Assembly (NCBI GenBank): GCA_965262775.1
Contig: CBDHFT010000005.1
Coordinates: forward strand, 17,760 to 81,759
Length of the DNA stretch: 64,000 nt
Reading direction: 5' to 3'
Source of the DNA: Alphaproteobacteria bacterium
GTDB taxonomy: Bacteria > Pseudomonadota > Alphaproteobacteria > JASGCL01
The translations under genes were made by a program, and so were the position numbers. Shown here one piece after another: positions 8,590 to 55,671 of the stretch; within the stretch, counting starts at the first letter, position 1, and each line of letters begins with the position of its first letter. The notes beneath the pieces are model-generated. The model did no database searches and was not told the DNA's origin. It saw nothing but the letters and a program-made list of their open reading frames with translations.

Positions 8590-10983
8590 ATGAAATTTAC
8601 CTTATCATGGCTTGCTGACCATTTGGATACCACGGCCGATACCCAAACCATTGCCAACACCCTAACCCATATAGGGTTGGAGGTTGAAACAATGGAAGAC
8701 AAGGGCGCGATGTTAAAGCCATTTGTGATTGGCGAAGTCATGGAATGCGGCAAACACCCCAACGCTGATAAATTATCTTTGTGCAAGGTTTCTGATGGCA
8801 AGCAAACTTTCCAAGTCGTATGCGGTGCCCCCAATGTGCGCCAAGGGTTAAAGGTGGTTATGGCCCATGTCGGCGACACTATCCCGCGCTCGGGCGTGAT
8901 ATTAAACGAAGGGGTCATTCGCGGCATGGCGTCGCAAGCCATGTTATGTTCAAACTATGAATTATGTTTGGGCGATGACCACGATGGCATCATCGAATTA
9001 CCCAAGGATGCCCCCATGGGTAAAAATTATGCCGCCTGGGCAAGTTTGAACGATGTGATGTTCGACATCAAACTAACCCCTAATCGCGGTGATTGTTTGG
9101 GGGTGCGGGGCATAGCACGCGACCTGGCGGCCGCGGGGTTGGGAACATTGAAACCGCTTAATGTCAAATCAATCGCGGGAGGCTTTCCCTCCCCACTCCT
9201 ATGGAAAATTGAATCCGCCGCGGCCGAAGCCTGCCCCCTGGTTATGGGGCGATATTTTAAAGGGGTAAAGAACTGCCCCTCCCCCGCTTGGTTAAAAGCA
9301 AAATTAGCATCGGTGGGCATGAAGTCAATCTCCGCCCTGGTGGATATTACAAATTATTTGTCGCAGGATTTGGCGCGCCCCCTCCATGTATTTTCGGCCA
9401 AAAAATTAAAACCTGGCGATATAACCATGCGTTATGCGAAACAAGGCGAAAAAATATTGGCACTTGATGAAAAAGAATATAGCCTGGATGATAAAATGTT
9501 GGTGATAGATAATGCGGGGGCGGTTGCATCGGTTGGCGGTATCATGGGCGGGCTTGCCAGTGGTTGCCAATTGGACGATACCGATATTTTTTTAGAAGTT
9601 GCTTATTTTGAACCAACGGGCATTGCACGAACTGGGCGGTTGTTAAATTTGCTATCCGATGCGCGTTATCGGTTTGAACGCGGTATAGACCCCGAAGGTT
9701 TGCAGTTAGGATTGGATAGAGCTACCCAATTGATATTAGAAATATGCGGCGGCGAAGCATCCACCATCACCACGGCGGGCAAAAAACTACCGCCACAAAA
9801 ACCTATCGATTTTTCGCCAGCCAAAGTTAAAACCTACGGCGGTTTGACGCTGGGCGATGATGTTATCGAAAAAAAATTAACCGCCCTGGGTTTTGTCATC
9901 AACAAAGGCAACCCAACCTGGCAAGTCATCGCACCCAGTTGGCGCCGCGATATTGAAAATGATAATTGTTTGGTAGAAGAAGTATTGCGGTTGCACGGTT
10001 TTGATAAAATCCCCGATGTTGCCCTGCCCCGCCTCATGCCTCACCAAGCCATCAATGAGCAAGGACGGCGATTGATGACCATGCGCCGCGCCCTGGCGCA
10101 ATGTGGATTTTATGAAACCATCACCTGGTCATTTACAAAAGAATCTTTGGCTACCGACTTTGGGGGTTCGCCTGCCTTGGAGATTATCAAATTGCAAAAC
10201 CCTATCCATAGCGACATGGATTGCATGCGCCCTTCCGTCCTATGTAATCTTATTTTGGCCGCGGGTTATAATCAAGCGCGTAACCTGTCGCCCATTTACC
10301 TGTTTGAATCGGGTTTGGCATTTCATGGGGTTGAGCCCGAGCAACAGGTGCCGATGATAGCAGGCATAAAATTGAGCGCGGACGAACAACATTGGCAAAA
10401 ATTGCCGCCGCTTGATGCCTTCGTTATCAAATCGGACATGTTTGCCGCTATAGAATCGGTTGGGTTTAATCCCCATAACCTGCAAATAAAGCAAGATAAT
10501 ATACCACCGCATTATCACCCCCATGCGGCGGCCAGCCTGAACCTTGGGAAAGATATTGTCGGGTATTTTGGCGAACTTCACCCCGCCGTGTTGGCGCGCC
10601 ATGGCGTAACGGGCAAATTATTTGGCTTCGAAATTTTTATGGATAAGATTCCCGTGGCGCATGAAGCGAAATCGCGCGCCAAGCCGCCGCTTATAGTAAA
10701 TGATTTGCCGCGCGTGCATCGTGATTTTGCTTTTTTGGTTGATAAAAATATAACCGCGGCACAGATAGTCAATGCGATAAAAAAGGCAGATAAGAAATTC
10801 ATTGACAATGTCAGGATATTTGATATTTATCAAGATATCAAACATCCATCGCAAACCTCGATAGCATTACGGGTCACCATCATCCCCGATGGCAAAACCT
10901 TATCCGATATCGAAATAAAAACTATCAGCGACAAAATTGTTGCCGAGGTGCTTCGTGCCACCAACGGACAATTGCGCCAATAA
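8590..10983 (+). CDS. pheT: phenylalanine--tRNA ligase beta subunit
   Basis: MKFTLSWLADHLDT is the classic PheT N-terminus. About 798 aa. B3/4, B5 and FDX-ACB domains are recognisable. Confidence 0.9.
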   Translation: MKFTLSWLADHLDTTADTQTIANTLTHIGLEVETMEDKGAMLKPFVIGEVMECGKHPNADKLSLCKVSDGKQTFQVVCGAPNVRQGLKVVMAHVGDTIPRSGVILNEGVIRGMASQAMLCSNYELCLGDDHDGIIELPKDAPMGKNYAAWASLNDVMFDIKLTPNRGDCLGVRGIARDLAAAGLGTLKPLNVKSIAGGFPSPLLWKIESAAAEACPLVMGRYFKGVKNCPSPAWLKAKLASVGMKSISALVDITNYLSQDLARPLHVFSAKKLKPGDITMRYAKQGEKILALDEKEYSLDDKMLVIDNAGAVASVGGIMGGLASGCQLDDTDIFLEVAYFEPTGIARTGRLLNLLSDARYRFERGIDPEGLQLGLDRATQLILEICGGEASTITTAGKKLPPQKPIDFSPAKVKTYGGLTLGDDVIEKKLTALGFVINKGNPTWQVIAPSWRRDIENDNCLVEEVLRLHGFDKIPDVALPRLMPHQAINEQGRRLMTMRRALAQCGFYETITWSFTKESLATDFGGSPALEIIKLQNPIHSDMDCMRPSVLCNLILAAGYNQARNLSPIYLFESGLAFHGVEPEQQVPMIAGIKLSADEQHWQKLPPLDAFVIKSDMFAAIESVGFNPHNLQIKQDNIPPHYHPHAAASLNLGKDIVGYFGELHPAVLARHGVTGKLFGFEIFMDKIPVAHEAKSRAKPPLIVNDLPRVHRDFAFLVDKNITAAQIVNAIKKADKKFIDNVRIFDIYQDIKHPSQTSIALRVTIIPDGKTLSDIEIKTISDKIVAEVLRATNGQLRQ

Positions 10984-51088: not shown

Positions 51089-51165
51089 TGGCGATGGAGA
51101 CGGGGCTCGAACCCGCGACCTTCGGCGTGACAGGCCGATGTTCTAACCAACTGAACTACTCCACC
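51089..51165 (-). tRNA. tRNA-Asp (anticodon GTC), CCA encoded
   Basis: The reverse complement reads GGTGGAGTAGTTCAGTTGGTTAGAACATCGGCCTGTCACGCCGAAGGTCGCGGGTTCGAGCCCCGTCTCCATCGCCA. The anticodon loop is CTGTCAC. Confidence 0.85.
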
Positions 51166-52161: not shown

Positions 52162-53667
52162 ATGAATCAAAAAGTAAAACTAGACCTGGTCACCAGCAAC
52201 AATTTGGTGATGACGCCGCAGTTGCAACAGGCGATAAAATTATTACAATATAGCGGCGACCAGTTGACCGAATTTTTATTAAAAGAAATAGAAAAAAATC
52301 CTTTGCTGGAACTAAGCACCGACAGCCAGGCGGAGCATGCGGGGGCAGGCAACGCGGCGGCAAGTCAATCTACCGAACATAATAACCCCCATGTTTTGGA
52401 AGGTAGCAAAGATGTCCATGGGGTAACCGATGGCGCGAATACCCCCGCCCCCTCTCACCAAGAACAAGATGCCGAACAAAATTTTTATCAAAATGATCAT
52501 AGCTTGAAAGGTTCGGGGTCATTTAACAACGATGGTGATAACGACGCCATAGCGCGGGTTGCGGGGCAAGAATCCTTGCAGGGGCATTTGATGAATCAAA
52601 TTGATATTTTATTTTCTAAAAATAGCCCCGATTATAAAATTGCCCTGGTGTTTTTGGGGTTGTTGGAAGAAACGGGTTGGTTGGCCAGCAATTGGCAGCA
52701 GGACCTGACCTCCCTCGGCGTAACCAGCGCGAAGGTCGAAGAAGTTTTACACAAATTGCAAACCCTTGAACCCGCGGGGATATTTTGTCGTAATTTGCGC
52801 GAATGTTTGATGATTCAATTGCGCGACAAAGATCTGCTTAGCGACAACATGCAGTGCCTGCTTGATAACCTTGATTGTTTTATATCGGGCGATGAAAAAA
52901 AATTATTGGAAAGAACTGGGCTAACATCTGACGATATCAAACCCTTGATTACTATCATCAGGGCGCAAGACCCCAAGCCTGGGCTGGCCTATCAATTTCA
53001 AGCCCCCATCGCCATCGAACCCGATGTCGTGGTGTTTAAAAATTCTTTGGGCGAATGGCAAGCCGAATTAAACAGCCGCGCCAGCCCGCGGGCTATCCTT
53101 CATGAAAAAAACTATCAACATTATACCCAATCACGTTCTTTATTAAAAAAAGACAGGCAATTTATAGCCGAAAAATTTTATGCAGCAAAATGGCTGATAA
53201 AAAGTTTGGAACAGCGGCAAGAAACAATTTTAAAAGTTGCCAGCAAAATTATTGAAAAGCAGAAAAACTTTTTTGATTACGGTATCGAAAACCTAAAACC
53301 GCTTATTTTGCGCGACATTGCTTCGGCGATTGAAATGCACGAAAGCACGGTTAGCCGCGTTACCACCAACAAATACATGGCAACGCCGCGCGGCATGTTC
53401 GAAATGAAATTTTTCTTTACCCAAGCATTGGAAGGCAGCGACAAAGACAACCCCGTATCGGCGGAGGTTGTTCGCCATTATATAAAAAATATCATCGCGG
53501 GCGAAACCCCCGACAAAATTTTGTCAGACGATGTTATTGTTGAAAATTTAAAAGAAATTGGTTTCCAGGTCGCGCGTCGCACCGTGGCAAAATATCGCGA
53601 ATCCCTTTCCATTCCATCATCGGTCATGCGCCGCAAGATGAAAAACAATTTTTTATATCTGGGCTAG
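52162..53667 (+). CDS. rpoN: RNA polymerase sigma-54 factor
   Basis: N-terminal region I (LQQAIKLLQYS). A C-terminal HTH and an RpoN-box-like ARRTVAKYRE are present. 501 aa. Confidence 0.9.
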   Translation: MNQKVKLDLVTSNNLVMTPQLQQAIKLLQYSGDQLTEFLLKEIEKNPLLELSTDSQAEHAGAGNAAASQSTEHNNPHVLEGSKDVHGVTDGANTPAPSHQEQDAEQNFYQNDHSLKGSGSFNNDGDNDAIARVAGQESLQGHLMNQIDILFSKNSPDYKIALVFLGLLEETGWLASNWQQDLTSLGVTSAKVEEVLHKLQTLEPAGIFCRNLRECLMIQLRDKDLLSDNMQCLLDNLDCFISGDEKKLLERTGLTSDDIKPLITIIRAQDPKPGLAYQFQAPIAIEPDVVVFKNSLGEWQAELNSRASPRAILHEKNYQHYTQSRSLLKKDRQFIAEKFYAAKWLIKSLEQRQETILKVASKIIEKQKNFFDYGIENLKPLILRDIASAIEMHESTVSRVTTNKYMATPRGMFEMKFFFTQALEGSDKDNPVSAEVVRHYIKNIIAGETPDKILSDDVIVENLKEIGFQVARRTVAKYRESLSIPSSVMRRKMKNNFLYLG

Positions 53668-53680
53668 GCCGTAGGCCTAG
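53664..53680. repeat. 17-bp quasi-palindrome CTAGGCCGTAGGCCTAG, the left flank of the AT-rich islet
   Basis: It overlaps the rpoN stop codon. A near-identical copy, CTAAGCCTACGCCTAG, lies at 54774-54789 and matches the reverse complement at 14 of 16 positions. Confidence 0.4.
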
Positions 53681-53717
53681 AACCAGACTTTTCAGCTTTG
53701 GGGAGATGACATCTATT

Positions 53718-54686
53718 TTATGGCCAAACGTCAGAGATGACCTTTGCCTTACGCAACGTTTCCAAATTTGTATATCTTGGCCCTTGTAACTGGTCGCCAT
53801 TGCGCCGCCTTTTAATGCGTTCTTCAAAAACCTTAGGCTTATCCTTAAAATTTAATCTATAATAATTAATCATCTTTCCCGTTTTTTTATTATTTTTGGT
53901 TTCGTGAACAACTATGTTTTCGACTGCTGCGTAGTGAGTGATCGCAGAAATAGGCGATTTGCGATAAATAGCCAAATACTTAATTTTGTCTTTTAAATTC
54001 TCGCTTATTCTTATTGCATACCAACAATTTTCTTCCATAAATATTTTATTAAAAGTTTCTTCACCACTAGGCACAACAATGGCATCAATCTGCTTATTAC
54101 CTTGCAATAAATCATTTTTAATTTCTGCTATTTCTTCTTCTGCATCTTCTGCGTTTCTATCATTAGATTTTTTAATTTTCTTTGCCGATTCATCAAAGGC
54201 CTCTAGCCCAATTAATTCTGCAACATGTAATATTTCTTTTAACCTGTTTCTTAAAGACGATTTGCTAGAATCATCAAGAGTCGGTTCGCTAGGAAAATTT
54301 CCATTTTCTAATACACATACACCCAACTCGCCAGCCAACTTGCATAAAGCATATTCTAGCCATTGAATCCGCGCCTTATCAAATTTTTCTGAAAGAATGG
54401 CCACGCCCCATTCCCAAAAATCTTTATTTTTAATATGAGATTCAATCCTTCCCCTCACCGTGGCATCACCCTCGCCAATATAAATACGCTCAACATCATC
54501 ATTATGCCCAGAATAACCAACCAAAATATAAACACCATTATGTTTAAAATTCTCTTGGTCTTTAACTAAATCCCATTTGTCTTTTGGGAACGCTATAGCT
54601 GACCACACCCAGTCGTCGTTGACAATGATGCGGGCACCCTGCGGGTCGCCATCTAAACAACGAATTTTTATTGTATATTCTGCCAT
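53718..54686 (-). CDS. GIY-YIG-family nuclease with a C-terminal DUF4357-like domain
   Basis: N-terminus: GVYILVGY followed by RIYIGEGDATVRGRIESH and then E in QWLEYAL (GIY-x11-YIG-R-H-E spacing). C-terminus: ...ITHYAAVENI...QGPRYTNLETLRKA resembles the DUF4357 consensus as I recall it. The gene is clearly more AT-rich than both flanks. Confidence 0.6.
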   Translation of the reverse strand: MAEYTIKIRCLDGDPQGARIIVNDDWVWSAIAFPKDKWDLVKDQENFKHNGVYILVGYSGHNDDVERIYIGEGDATVRGRIESHIKNKDFWEWGVAILSEKFDKARIQWLEYALCKLAGELGVCVLENGNFPSEPTLDDSSKSSLRNRLKEILHVAELIGLEAFDESAKKIKKSNDRNAEDAEEEIAEIKNDLLQGNKQIDAIVVPSGEETFNKIFMEENCWYAIRISENLKDKIKYLAIYRKSPISAITHYAAVENIVVHETKNNKKTGKMINYYRLNFKDKPKVFEERIKRRRNGDQLQGPRYTNLETLRKAKVISDVWP

Positions 54687-54773
54687 CGCCTGACAATATA
54701 CAATTCAACAGGAAGGCGCAAATGGTTTTTATAAAATTTAAAATTTTAATTTCTAGCGATAGCAAAATTGGTT

Positions 54774-54789
54774 CTAAGCCTACGCCTAG
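54774..54789. repeat. 16-bp quasi-palindrome CTAAGCCTACGCCTAG, the right flank of the AT-rich islet
   Basis: Partner of the 53664-53680 repeat. It lies 36 nt upstream of dapD. Confidence 0.4.
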
Positions 54790-54825
54790 TTTGCAAATTG
54801 TAAAAAAATCCCCTATAGAAAAAAA

Positions 54826-55671
54826 ATGCCCCACGAAAAATTACAAAAAATCATTGAAACCGCTTGGCAACAACGCGACGCTATAACCCCCGACAAACAT
54901 GACGCGGCGGTAAAATCGGCGGTTGATGAAGTTCTCAACCTCCTTGATGCTGGCACATTGCGCGTCGCCGAAAAAACGGGCGACAAATGGCATACCCACC
55001 AATGGTTAAAAATGGCGGTGCTGTTGTCTTTCAAATTATCCCCTAACAAGGTTATCAAGGGCGGCAGCGGCGGCGGTTGGTTCGACAAGGTCGATTCCAA
55101 ATGGCTGGGGTGGGATGAATCTTCTTGGCAGAAACATGGGTTTCGTGCCGTGCCCAACGCCGTGGTGCGCCATTCGGCTTACATTGCCCCTTCGGTGGTG
55201 TTGATGCCGTCGTTCGTTAATGTCGGGGCCTATGTTGATTCGGGCACCATGGTCGATACTTGGAGCACGGTTGGCTCCTGCGCCCAAATTGGTAAAAATG
55301 TTCACCTGTCGGGCGGGGTGGGCATCGGCGGGGTATTGGAACCATTGCAAGCCAACCCCACCATTATCGAAGATGATTGCTTCATCGGCGCCAGGGCCGA
55401 GGTTGCCGAAGGTGTGGTGGTCGGCAGGGGTTCGGTCCTTGCCATGGGTGTTTTTTTATCCGCCAGCACAAAAATTATCGACCGCGCCACGGGCAAAATT
55501 TACACGGGCATGGTGCCGCCCTATTCCGTGGTGGTGTCGGGGTCGTTGCCATCGAACAAAACAATGGCCGACGGCACACCAAGCCCCCATTTATATTGCG
55601 CGGTGATTGTGAAACAGGTGGATGAAAAAACCCGCGCCAAAACATCCATCAATGAATTATTGCGCGATTAA
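54826..55671 (+). CDS. dapD: 2,3,4,5-tetrahydropyridine-2,6-dicarboxylate N-succinyltransferase
   Basis: Left-handed beta-helix hexapeptide repeats are visible. The N-terminus [18 protein letters not shown] is DapD-like. 281 aa. Confidence 0.85.

Follow-up and report, generated by a model that had tools for sequence, protein, structure and literature searches.

The segment between positions 53664 and 54789 of the stretch of alphaproteobacterial DNA analysed here (contig CBDHFT010000005.1; all 64,000 nucleotides of the stretch are "the window" in what follows) is, with a probability that we put at about 0.55, a horizontally acquired islet of a single gene, and that gene would encode a solitary type IV-like restriction endonuclease guided by a reader domain. 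The segment is an insert between rpoN and dapD, absent from the same junction in a related genome; its one protein is built of two domains, the first with an intact GIY-YIG catalytic set, the second a module that recurs on other nucleases; the gene is under purifying selection; and the family to which it belongs is distributed in defence islands.

How would such an enzyme work? Nuclease activity, ligand and phage restriction are what we infer, as follows. The C-terminal PUA-like domain would recognise some feature that invading DNA carries; by analogy with EVE, YTH, ASCH and SRA readers, the most probable ligand is a modified base that has been flipped out. A flexible linker of ~25 amino acids (aa) would tether this reader to the N-terminal GIY-YIG domain, which would cut nearby. 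Host DNA would be spared since it is without the mark: type IV, modification-dependent restriction, with no partner methyltransferase. The hairpins that bound the segment would be two inverted copies of a REP-like element (REP: repetitive extragenic palindrome) marking the ends of the insert.

An AT-rich gene at an occupied site

The insert consists of one open reading frame (ORF), on the minus strand at 53718-54686 (969 bp, 322 codons plus stop). The adjoining genes are rpoN and dapD; neither a cognate methyltransferase at the locus nor an antitoxin-like partner gene within the insert accompanies the nuclease. No other of the window's 46 non-overlapping ORFs of 200 aa or more is as low in GC as this one (0.365 against a window mean of 0.460, z -3.3); GC at third codon positions (GC3) is 0.319 (z -4.0), and lysine, asparagine and isoleucine together make up 26.4% of the protein (z +3.0). 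The original prediction, made from the letters of the window, had singled out this ORF with the peptides that it encodes, had called it AT-rich and rich in K, N and I, and had placed it between matching palindromes at the rpoN stop and 36 nt before dapD; every one of these observations holds. The ratio of nonsynonymous to synonymous divergence (dN/dS), at 0.2-0.25, indicates purifying selection and, to judge by these sequence comparisons, a functional gene. The region upstream of the gene inside the insert (54687-54768) presumably holds its own promoter; a candidate, TTGCTA-N17-TTTAAA on the minus strand, was read by eye, and since a consensus promoter scan called no site in 54687-54768 we put it forward as a candidate only.

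Five related genomes were found across all the collections searched, and 2 of the 5 are without the gene at the rpoN|dapD site. L001 (GCA_030054115.1), whose flanking proteins are 68-86% identical to those of the window, has the gene (82% identical, equally AT-rich). So does L004, a sea-cave metagenome-assembled genome (MAG) with flanks 68-85% identical, in which the nuclease is 45% identical by tblastn, 49% globally, and has a GC content of 0.31 in a locus of 0.40. The outgroup to this trio, L174/L175 (rpoN 60%, flanks 59-77%), reads, in exact synteny, lptB-rpoN-dapD-dapE-acs-lexA, with a 166-bp spacer between rpoN and dapD and no trace of the gene. L093, compared at dapD alone (82%), has an Nramp gene upstream of dapD and no nuclease. 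The empty site came from a search with the rpoN protein, and the dapD protein search added the rearranged clade member (Nramp|dapD). A dapD search of genome contigs yielded one close relative only and 79 loci without rpoN-dapD adjacency, and a metagenome scan with the rpoN C-terminus pattern yielded 0 matches.

When the empty and the occupied site are aligned, homology ends with rpoN and restarts at the dapD -35 box (TTTGCAA), so that what the window and L001 alone possess extends from one hairpin to the other. A single-gene insert is what had been predicted, and the empty rpoN|dapD junction of L174, with hairpins at the ends of what is missing there, bears this out; nor does the same gene sit at this place in all relatives, three carrying it, one being empty and one rearranged.

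(A technical note on L001: its contig, JASGCL010000016.1, belongs to a MAG labelled 'Hydrotalea sp.'. Hydrotalea is a genus of Bacteroidota. The contig is syntenic with the window, L004 and L174, and L004 and L174 are recorded as Alphaproteobacteria; probably the contig is mis-binned or the MAG mislabelled.)

The nuclease half: a PDC-S14 chassis

The AF2 model of the protein (predicted local distance difference test, pLDDT, 86.5) falls into two domains, residues 1-170 and 200-322, with a low-confidence linker between them. A GIY-YIG alpha/beta fold is found in the first. Its core residues are GVY53, IY69IG71, R80, H84, E111 and N128, and Y53, Y69, G71, R80, H84, E111 and N128 are invariant across an alignment of 55 homologues. 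Their counterparts in I-TevI are Y6, Y17, R27, H31, E75 and N90, and we take the R-x3-H and E-to-N spacings of the window protein to resemble those of I-TevI; I-TevI and SegE-like proteins are among the structural matches.

Profile and sequence searches say less. Pfam PF01541 does not match the window protein even at E<=1; of the 55 family members it matches 20, and these weakly (best E 0.008, every one under the 22.6-bit cut-off). An NCBIfam search of the window protein returned nothing, and neither the protein by itself nor the family profile found more than chance matches among PDB sequences; PHROG 12629, of unknown function, matches residues 5-204. The fold of the model together with the invariant residues nevertheless confirms this half as a GIY-YIG nuclease, for which cleavage is predicted. 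The original prediction of a GIY-YIG core followed by a DUF4357-like tail had looked to Pfam for both. Pfam recognises neither: for the core, the silence of PF01541 is overridden by fold and residues; the tail is another matter.

The nuclease half has a place in the PADLOC collection. Five PDC-S14 models match the window protein (best E 1.3e-39, others 3.9e-37 and 4.4e-37), the matches being limited to residues 1-184/190/197 and leaving profile positions past about 178-212 of 301-320 unmatched. Most plasmid tblastn matches, likewise, cover only residues ~5-173. Two of these partial matches were examined, on an Acinetobacter plasmid (L090, 3986-4912) and a Ketogulonicigenium plasmid (L091, 3974-4900); both genes lie between hsdS and hsdR of type I restriction-modification (R-M) operons. 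Their products match the PDC-S14 models end to end (E 1e-124 and 1e-111, covering 21-316 of 320) and match PF14267, the DUF4357 profile, at E 3e-15 and 6e-14.

With these two as positive controls, PF14267 matches neither the window protein nor its 55 relatives at E<=1. An hhalign comparison of the family with a GIY-YIG-DUF4357 protein aligns columns 2-178 (probability 99.8%, E 5e-28) and nothing beyond. On both counts a DUF4357 tail is ruled out, and that part of the original prediction falls. It was a reasonable lead all the same, since canonical PDC-S14 proteins, those of type I R-M operons, do have DUF4357 on this nuclease module. DUF4357 has been reported as an accessory domain of GmrSD, of McrB homologues and of GIY-YIG proteins (PMC4619093, PMC11090510). 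By sequence comparison one chassis holds either DUF4357, as is usual, or an unrelated PUA-like domain, and the tail has been exchanged in the window protein's subfamily.

A portable PUA-like domain

The closest structural neighbours of the C-terminal half are an ASCH protein (score 8.4), YTH domains (7.0-7.5) and EVE-type proteins (6.8-7.1), followed by VcaM4I (7.0), the 5-methylcytosine (5mC)-bound N-terminal domain of McrB (6.5) and THYN1 on 5mC DNA (6.4); Foldseek again puts the ASCH/YTH/EVE set on top, with modest E-values of about 0.02. As modelled, then, the domain is a PUA-like beta-barrel. Candidates for an aromatic pocket around a flipped modified base are W222, Y241 and Y276, invariant in the 55-homologue alignment, and the near-invariant H251 and Y305.

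Searched alone, the domain (125 aa) finds 565 representative clusters at E<=1e-3, and its carriers, among the 150 best listed, are 109-632 aa long. Ten carriers of other lengths were scanned against Pfam for fusion partners. The domain recurs as a portable recognition module: with GIY-YIG plus DUF4357 and with a shorter GIY-YIG core; with HSDR_N (PD-(D/E)XK type), with or without RAMA; with GmrSD_N; and with VRR-NUC/PDDEXK. A small domain fused to several unrelated nucleases is the pattern of modification-dependent specificity domains (PMC6765204, PMC7641849). It is also joined to a Ser/Thr kinase and to an IS66-family transposase (P0305, 575 aa; P0308, 632 aa).

What distinguishes the window protein from its closest relative is concentrated in one beta-hairpin of the putative sensor (aa ~252-290), where 25 of 42 aligned residues are identical to L001 and the N-terminal domain is 89% identical. 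This hypervariable hairpin may be a surface that determines specificity or one that is exposed to anti-defence factors.

The company that the homologues keep

A large protein database holds 698 homologues. The best 120 of the 698 are 260-352 aa long and 37-46% identical over nearly full length, the L001 protein, at 82%, standing apart; NCBI names them 'GIY-YIG nuclease family protein'. The catalogue of neighbourhoods that had been proposed with the original prediction was made for eight full-length homologues outside the clade, and all 8 of the 8 adjoin defence or mobile-element genes: 1) fragments of a type I R-M system with Schlafen/AlbA, Fic and AbiEi/AbiEii; 2) an XhoI-type R-M pair with an antitoxin; 3) AbiEii, RelB and a zeta toxin; 4) McrBC, helicases and HipA; 5) an integrative and conjugative element (ICE) with BREX; 6) a small plasmid, with an integrase and a restriction endonuclease alongside; 7) a resolvase with SNF2, an N6/N4 methyltransferase and ResIII; and 8) AlpA with a D12 methyltransferase and an AlwI endonuclease. 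The family is patchy across phyla, in defence islands, on plasmids and in an ICE. A one-gene defence element, as first proposed, fits both these surroundings and the PDC-S14 match; its function is a predicted one. An origin in phages was considered and rejected: tblastn in 50,697 phage records found no homologue, and a viral fold library gave generic GIY-YIG and small PUA-like proteins only.

The strongest of the other accounts, unlikely as we judge it to be, makes the protein an RNA-directed or abortive-infection nuclease or toxin: its PUA-like domain would bind modified or structured RNA, much as YTH domains bind m6A RNA and ASCH proteins act on RNA, and the nuclease, once triggered, would break down RNA or, without specificity, DNA. 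ASCH is indeed among the top structural neighbours, as are many YTH domains that bind RNA; several of the eight contexts contain genes of toxin-antitoxin or Abi systems (AbiE, RelB, zeta, HipA); and a protein kinase is among the fusion partners of the C-terminal domain. To our knowledge, however, GIY-YIG enzymes are DNA endonucleases; HSDR_N, GmrSD_N and VRR-NUC, the domain's other partners, are DNA restriction nucleases; readers bound to DNA (the McrB N-terminal domain and THYN1 with 5mC, VcaM4I) score like the RNA readers; and the insert has no antitoxin-like gene.

The modification-dependent DNA endonuclease remains the reading that we favour, and the considerations that weigh against it can be put together here. 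1) The Pfam ASCH, EVE and YTH models matched neither the window protein nor the 55 relatives nor the 10 other carriers of the domain. 2) PUA-like folds also bind RNA, and the scores on which the structural assignment is modelled are moderate. 3) The kinase and IS66 transposase fusions are not typical of a pure restriction sensor. 4) The hosts of type I R-M operons, in which canonical PDC-S14 proteins lie, methylate their own DNA, and the chassis is therefore not intrinsically modification-dependent. 5) PDC-S14 was not enriched in phage-resistant strains in one panel of P. aeruginosa (PMC10855318). 6) PDC systems are explicitly non-validated 'guilt-by-embedding' candidates, the function of the family being predicted. 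7) A gain of the gene in the trio rests on one outgroup, the alternative being loss in L174.

A cassette more alike than its flanks

Synonymous divergence (dS) between window and L001 is 0.48 in the nuclease gene and 0.86 to 1.73 in the neighbours. At four-fold degenerate sites 60 of 82 are identical in the gene (0.73, and 0.87 in its first third) as against 246 of 459 (0.54) in the four flanking genes pooled (Fisher p = 0.001, and 4e-5 if the first two thirds of the gene are taken). Compositional bias does not account for the higher identity, because the L004 allele, though equally AT-rich, stands at 0.42, the saturation level of its flanks. The non-coding stretches that the hairpins enclose show 80-82% identity between window and L001, the dapD promoter just outside 57%. 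The cassette being more alike than its flanks, exchange or conversion must have taken place between the two lineages after their split. Towards L004 the picture differs: synonymous sites are saturated, dN is about 0.43-0.46 (two to four times that of the neighbours) and dN/dS about 0.25, as would fit long residence together with rapid evolution of the protein.

A cassette that moves between lineages invites comparison with a selfish free-standing homing endonuclease of the T4 Seg kind, which would cut the empty rpoN|dapD junction of related genomes and be spread, in intron-less homing, by repair that draws on an occupied copy, with no benefit to the host. This would suit the presence/absence polymorphism at one exact intergenic site between conserved genes, the youth of the cassette relative to its flanks in window and L001, and a protein of the classic homing-endonuclease fold with I-TevI and SegE-like structural matches; a slightly raised synonymous identity in the last third of rpoN (0.64, as against 0.39-0.48 in the rest) could be a trace of co-conversion. 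Against it, dapD shows no gradient of co-conversion between window and L001, homologues of ~40% identity sit in eight unrelated defence or mobile contexts with no conserved target, none turned up in the 50,697 phage records, the tail is PUA-like, as in restriction nucleases, and not the zinc finger or helix-turn-helix of Seg and Tev enzymes, and the 45-49% identity and saturated synonymous sites of the L004 allele speak of long residence, not of recurrent invasion. We regard homing as quite improbable.

Could the gene, conversely, be no newcomer at all but an old resident with a housekeeping or repair function, AT-rich for the sake of its expression, lost in L174 and displaced in L093? It does occupy the same site in three genomes whose flanks are synonymously saturated; its GC content tracks that of the host at a constant offset (about 0.10 below host GC in all three carriers); it is under purifying selection; and the empty-site outgroup is just one. 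Yet GC3 is four standard deviations below the mean of the window, the family is scattered over phyla, in defence islands, on plasmids and in an ICE, the cassette is, as between window and L001, younger than what flanks it, its amino-acid divergence from L004 is two to four times that of its neighbours, and 2 of the 5 related genomes are without it at this site. This is the least probable of the accounts weighed here.

The hairpins at the ends of the insert

The palindrome CTAGGCCGTAGGCCTAG (53664-53680) overlaps the rpoN stop codon (TAG, 53665-53667); its partner, CTAAGCCTACGCCTAG, lies at 54774-54789, the dapD ATG (54826) following exactly 36 nt further on. Each makes up the outer 16-17 nt of one arm of a longer inverted repeat (left arm CTAGGCCGTAGGCCTAG-AACCA, right arm TGGTT-CTAAGCCTACGCCTAG), and the two arms match without gaps at 15 of 16 bases (94%; 53670-53685 against 54769-54784), the best match in 30 shuffles of the flanks being 14 of 16. 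Allowing one indel, the repeat spans 22 nt (CTAGGCCGTAGGCCTAGAACCA and TGGTTCTAAGCCTACGCCTAG). The left palindrome folds strongly as DNA (-11 kcal/mol, z -5.1); the right one, which is imperfect in the window (z -0.6), is perfect in L001 (z -2.8). The same pair is the top-ranked inverted repeat of L001 (22 nt, 86% complementary): its left hairpin is kept, with the loop GCG instead of GTA, and in its right stem, CTATGCC-CAC-GGCATAG, a T-A pair stands in the place of the G-C pair of the left hairpin, a compensated change with which the stem stays perfect. The hairpin pair was not found in L004, and the empty site of L174 has no CTAGGCC palindrome, its spacer having a hairpin of its own that is unrelated.

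Several identities for these hairpins can be set aside. A terminator scan does not call them intrinsic terminators, and a T-run follows them on neither strand; Rfam, searched over 53300-55100, has no match at E<=1; and flanking inverted repeats are not a trait of the family, those of six distant homologues and of L004 not rising above the shuffled background. No resemblance to an integron attC site, dif or the end of an insertion sequence (IS) is known.

In the window and in L001 the first arm of the left hairpin supplies the rpoN stop, so the insertion rewrote the last codons of rpoN: after ...NNFLY the RpoN tail reads LG* in these two, LDR* in L004 and GR* in L174. L001 has, at 8998-9008 (minus-strand reading), an extra CTAGG ahead of its left hairpin (GGGCTAGG|CTAGGCCGCGGGCCTAG), which could be a short duplication made at insertion and which is also reminiscent of the junctions '...gggctag|CTAGGCC' in copies of the high-GC repeat described below.

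Whether the palindromes are a common intergenic motif had been raised with the original prediction. Within the window they are not, there being no further copies of the motif elsewhere in its 64 kb; in an unrelated organism of 70% GC the 22-mer is dispersed. A metagenome scan with CTANGCCNNNGGCNTAGAACCA found 79 loci (L095-L173), 43 of them from one sample, Ga0315282, on contigs of ~70% GC. On these contigs CTAGGCC-N3-GGCCTAG-AACCA recurs exactly, with as many as four copies on one contig (at 155, 8745, 8866 and 9490 in L122; as three tandem copies in L117), and some copies directly follow ...CTAG, by its letters alone a possible stop codon. The whole repeat is ~100 nt long: after the 22-mer, with which it begins, comes another hairpin, CCGGCCCC...GGGGCCGG. 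Of the 73 palindromes in selected contigs totalling 306 kb, 54 have the AACCA extension. This is a dispersed repeat of the REP or MITE (miniature inverted-repeat transposable element) kind. The other ~36 loci have different stems and are presumably matches by chance or in coding sequence, as one might well expect when a 17-base pattern is run against a very large database.

The selected repeat-bearing contigs of Ga0315282 encode no homologue of the nuclease, and their proteins are just 30-43% identical to those of the window, which rules out a clade-specific REP shared with the high-GC organism. That the identical 22-mer is dispersed in an unrelated genome of 70% GC makes it probable that the palindromes are REP-like and not private ends of the insert. 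L093 argues in the same sense: without the nuclease, it shares with the window 14 identical bases, CGCCTAGTTTGCAA, comprising the outer arm of the right hairpin and the -35 box. An alphaproteobacterium of 45% GC thus flanks an AT-rich gene with the very 22-mer that is a REP-like repeat in a distant high-GC organism.

One way of accommodating all this would be a 'cargo REPIN': a defence gene between inverted REP-like hairpins, moved in trans by a transposase of the RAYT or IS200 type that recognises hairpins, or by the GIY-YIG nuclease itself. It would account for hairpins at the exact ends of the segment that the empty site lacks, and for the young cassette, the compensated stem change and the dispersal of the 22-mer in a distant organism. 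Like REPs and the REPIN-RAYT system, the window has short GC-rich palindromes right after a stop codon, two inverted copies flanking a single gene and a 22-mer that is multi-copy and dispersed in another organism; it differs in having two copies only in 64 kb and in that the flanked gene is a GIY-YIG nuclease and not a Y1 (RAYT) transposase. The proposal is an unlikely one, a shade less so than homing.

Known systems of similar design

The closest characterised analogue is CMoRE/PD-T4-3 (PDB 9u75), in which one protein combines a GIY-YIG domain at the N-terminus, a flexible linker and, at the C-terminus, a sensor of 5-hydroxymethylcytosine (5hmC); this single-component system defends directly and not by abortive infection (PMC12923530). 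CMoRE is also marked by an autoinhibitory acidic loop that covers its active site and by cleavage specific for 5hmC/g5hmC. The window protein shares this plan of one protein with GIY-YIG domain, linker and C-terminal sensor and no methyltransferase partner. It differs from CMoRE in having no match to the PADLOC PD-T4-3 model at E<=1; in having GVYIL (family consensus GVYILVGY) in place of the defining GIYxY with its third tyrosine (PMC12923530); in its extra N-terminal beta extension and helical stalk; and in its sensor, which is ASCH/YTH/EVE-like and 125 aa long, the 5hmC recognition of the CMoRE sensor having been compared with the SRA domain of UHRF2 (PMC12923530). Membership in CMoRE is rejected because of the missing model match and the missing GIYxY motif.

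With canonical PDC-S14 proteins the window protein has in common the homologous N-terminal 170-180 aa, including beta extension, catalytic residues and stalk; those proteins carry PF14267 and lie between hsdS and hsdR, whereas the window protein is PUA-like-tailed and solitary. Bell et al. (2020, PMC7641849) predicted that fusions of EVE with GIY-YIG act as type IV enzymes, and modification-dependent enzymes of the PUA superfamily include the EVE-HNH proteins VcaM4I and TspA15I and EVE-PD-(D/E)XK proteins (PMC7641849; Lutz et al. 2019, PMC6765204). A PUA-like reader joined to a nuclease is what the VcaM4I type and the window protein have in common. The reader of VcaM4I is at its N-terminus; the domain order of the window protein is the reverse, and the nuclease superfamily is a different one. 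Since the Pfam EVE, ASCH and YTH models miss the reader of the window protein, it probably escaped the surveys of Bell et al. and Lutz et al.

Features and neighbourhood

The principal features are collected in the table. On the rpoN side the gene order is rlmN, tRNA-Asp, lptB, rpoN, the rpoN product (P0390) having Sigma54 domains; on the other side follow dapD (P0121, THDPS_N_2/Hexapep), dapE and an AMP-forming acyl-CoA synthetase gene. The tRNA-Asp(GTC) gene (51089-51165, minus strand), between rlmN and lptB, is not next to the islet and so is not its integration site. The dapD promoter resembles TTGCAA-N17-TATAGA (54791-54828); its -10 box is 6 nt from the ATG, so near that the dapD mRNA is probably leaderless, and this geometry (N5-N6 between -10 box and ATG) is kept in L001, L004 and L174.

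Table. Coordinates of the islet, its protein domains and adjoining features (window positions unless another genome is named)
Feature	Position	Strand	Remarks
Left inverted-repeat arm	53664..53685	+	perfect 7-bp stem CTAGGCC-GTA-GGCCTAG, then inward extension AACCA
Nuclease gene	53718..54686	-	322 aa; dN/dS 0.21 vs L001, 0.25 vs L004
PUA-like (ASCH/YTH/EVE-like) putative target-recognition domain, aa 200-322	53721..54089	-	no Pfam model covers the domain
Hypervariable sensor beta-hairpin, aa ~252-290	53817..53933	-	indels of 3 and 4 aa vs L001
Flexible acidic/lysine-rich linker, aa 171-199	54090..54176	-	pLDDT <50 at residues 172-197; length and sequence vary across the family
PDC-S14-type nuclease module, aa 1-170	54177..54686	-	N-terminal beta extension (aa ~6-34), GIY-YIG core, helical stalk
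Upstream region of nuclease gene inside insert	54687..54768	-	80% identical to L001
Right inverted-repeat arm	54769..54789	+	TGGTT, then imperfect palindrome CTAAGC-CTAC-GCCTAG; abuts dapD -35 box
Flanking repeat, sequence form			CTAGGCCNNNGGCCTAGAACCA
RpoN C-terminal tail	window 53650-53667; L001 9004-9020; L004 2495-2511; L174 2720-2735		
dapD promoter in relatives	L001 7860-7896; L004 3540-3576; L174 2869-2904	- (L001)	

Significance

Much of this is familiar ground. Type IV enzymes that couple a reader to a nuclease are established, EVE-GIY-YIG fusions are on record as predictions (PMC7641849), a GIY-YIG type IV enzyme has a solved structure (PMC12923530), and the N-terminal half of the window protein is already in PADLOC; the logic of type IV reader-nucleases is not overturned. 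What is new is a large subfamily with an unannotated PUA-like domain in the place of DUF4357, the fact that this domain is common to several other restriction nucleases, and a single-gene islet, clean and bounded by hairpins, whose empty site has been identified. The PUA-like domain merits a family definition of its own and is a good candidate for a new modified-base specificity; enzymes specific for modified bases are useful as epigenetic tools, as has been proposed for CMoRE. And if the hairpins should turn out to be mobilisation signals, they would bear on how single defence genes spread outside islands.

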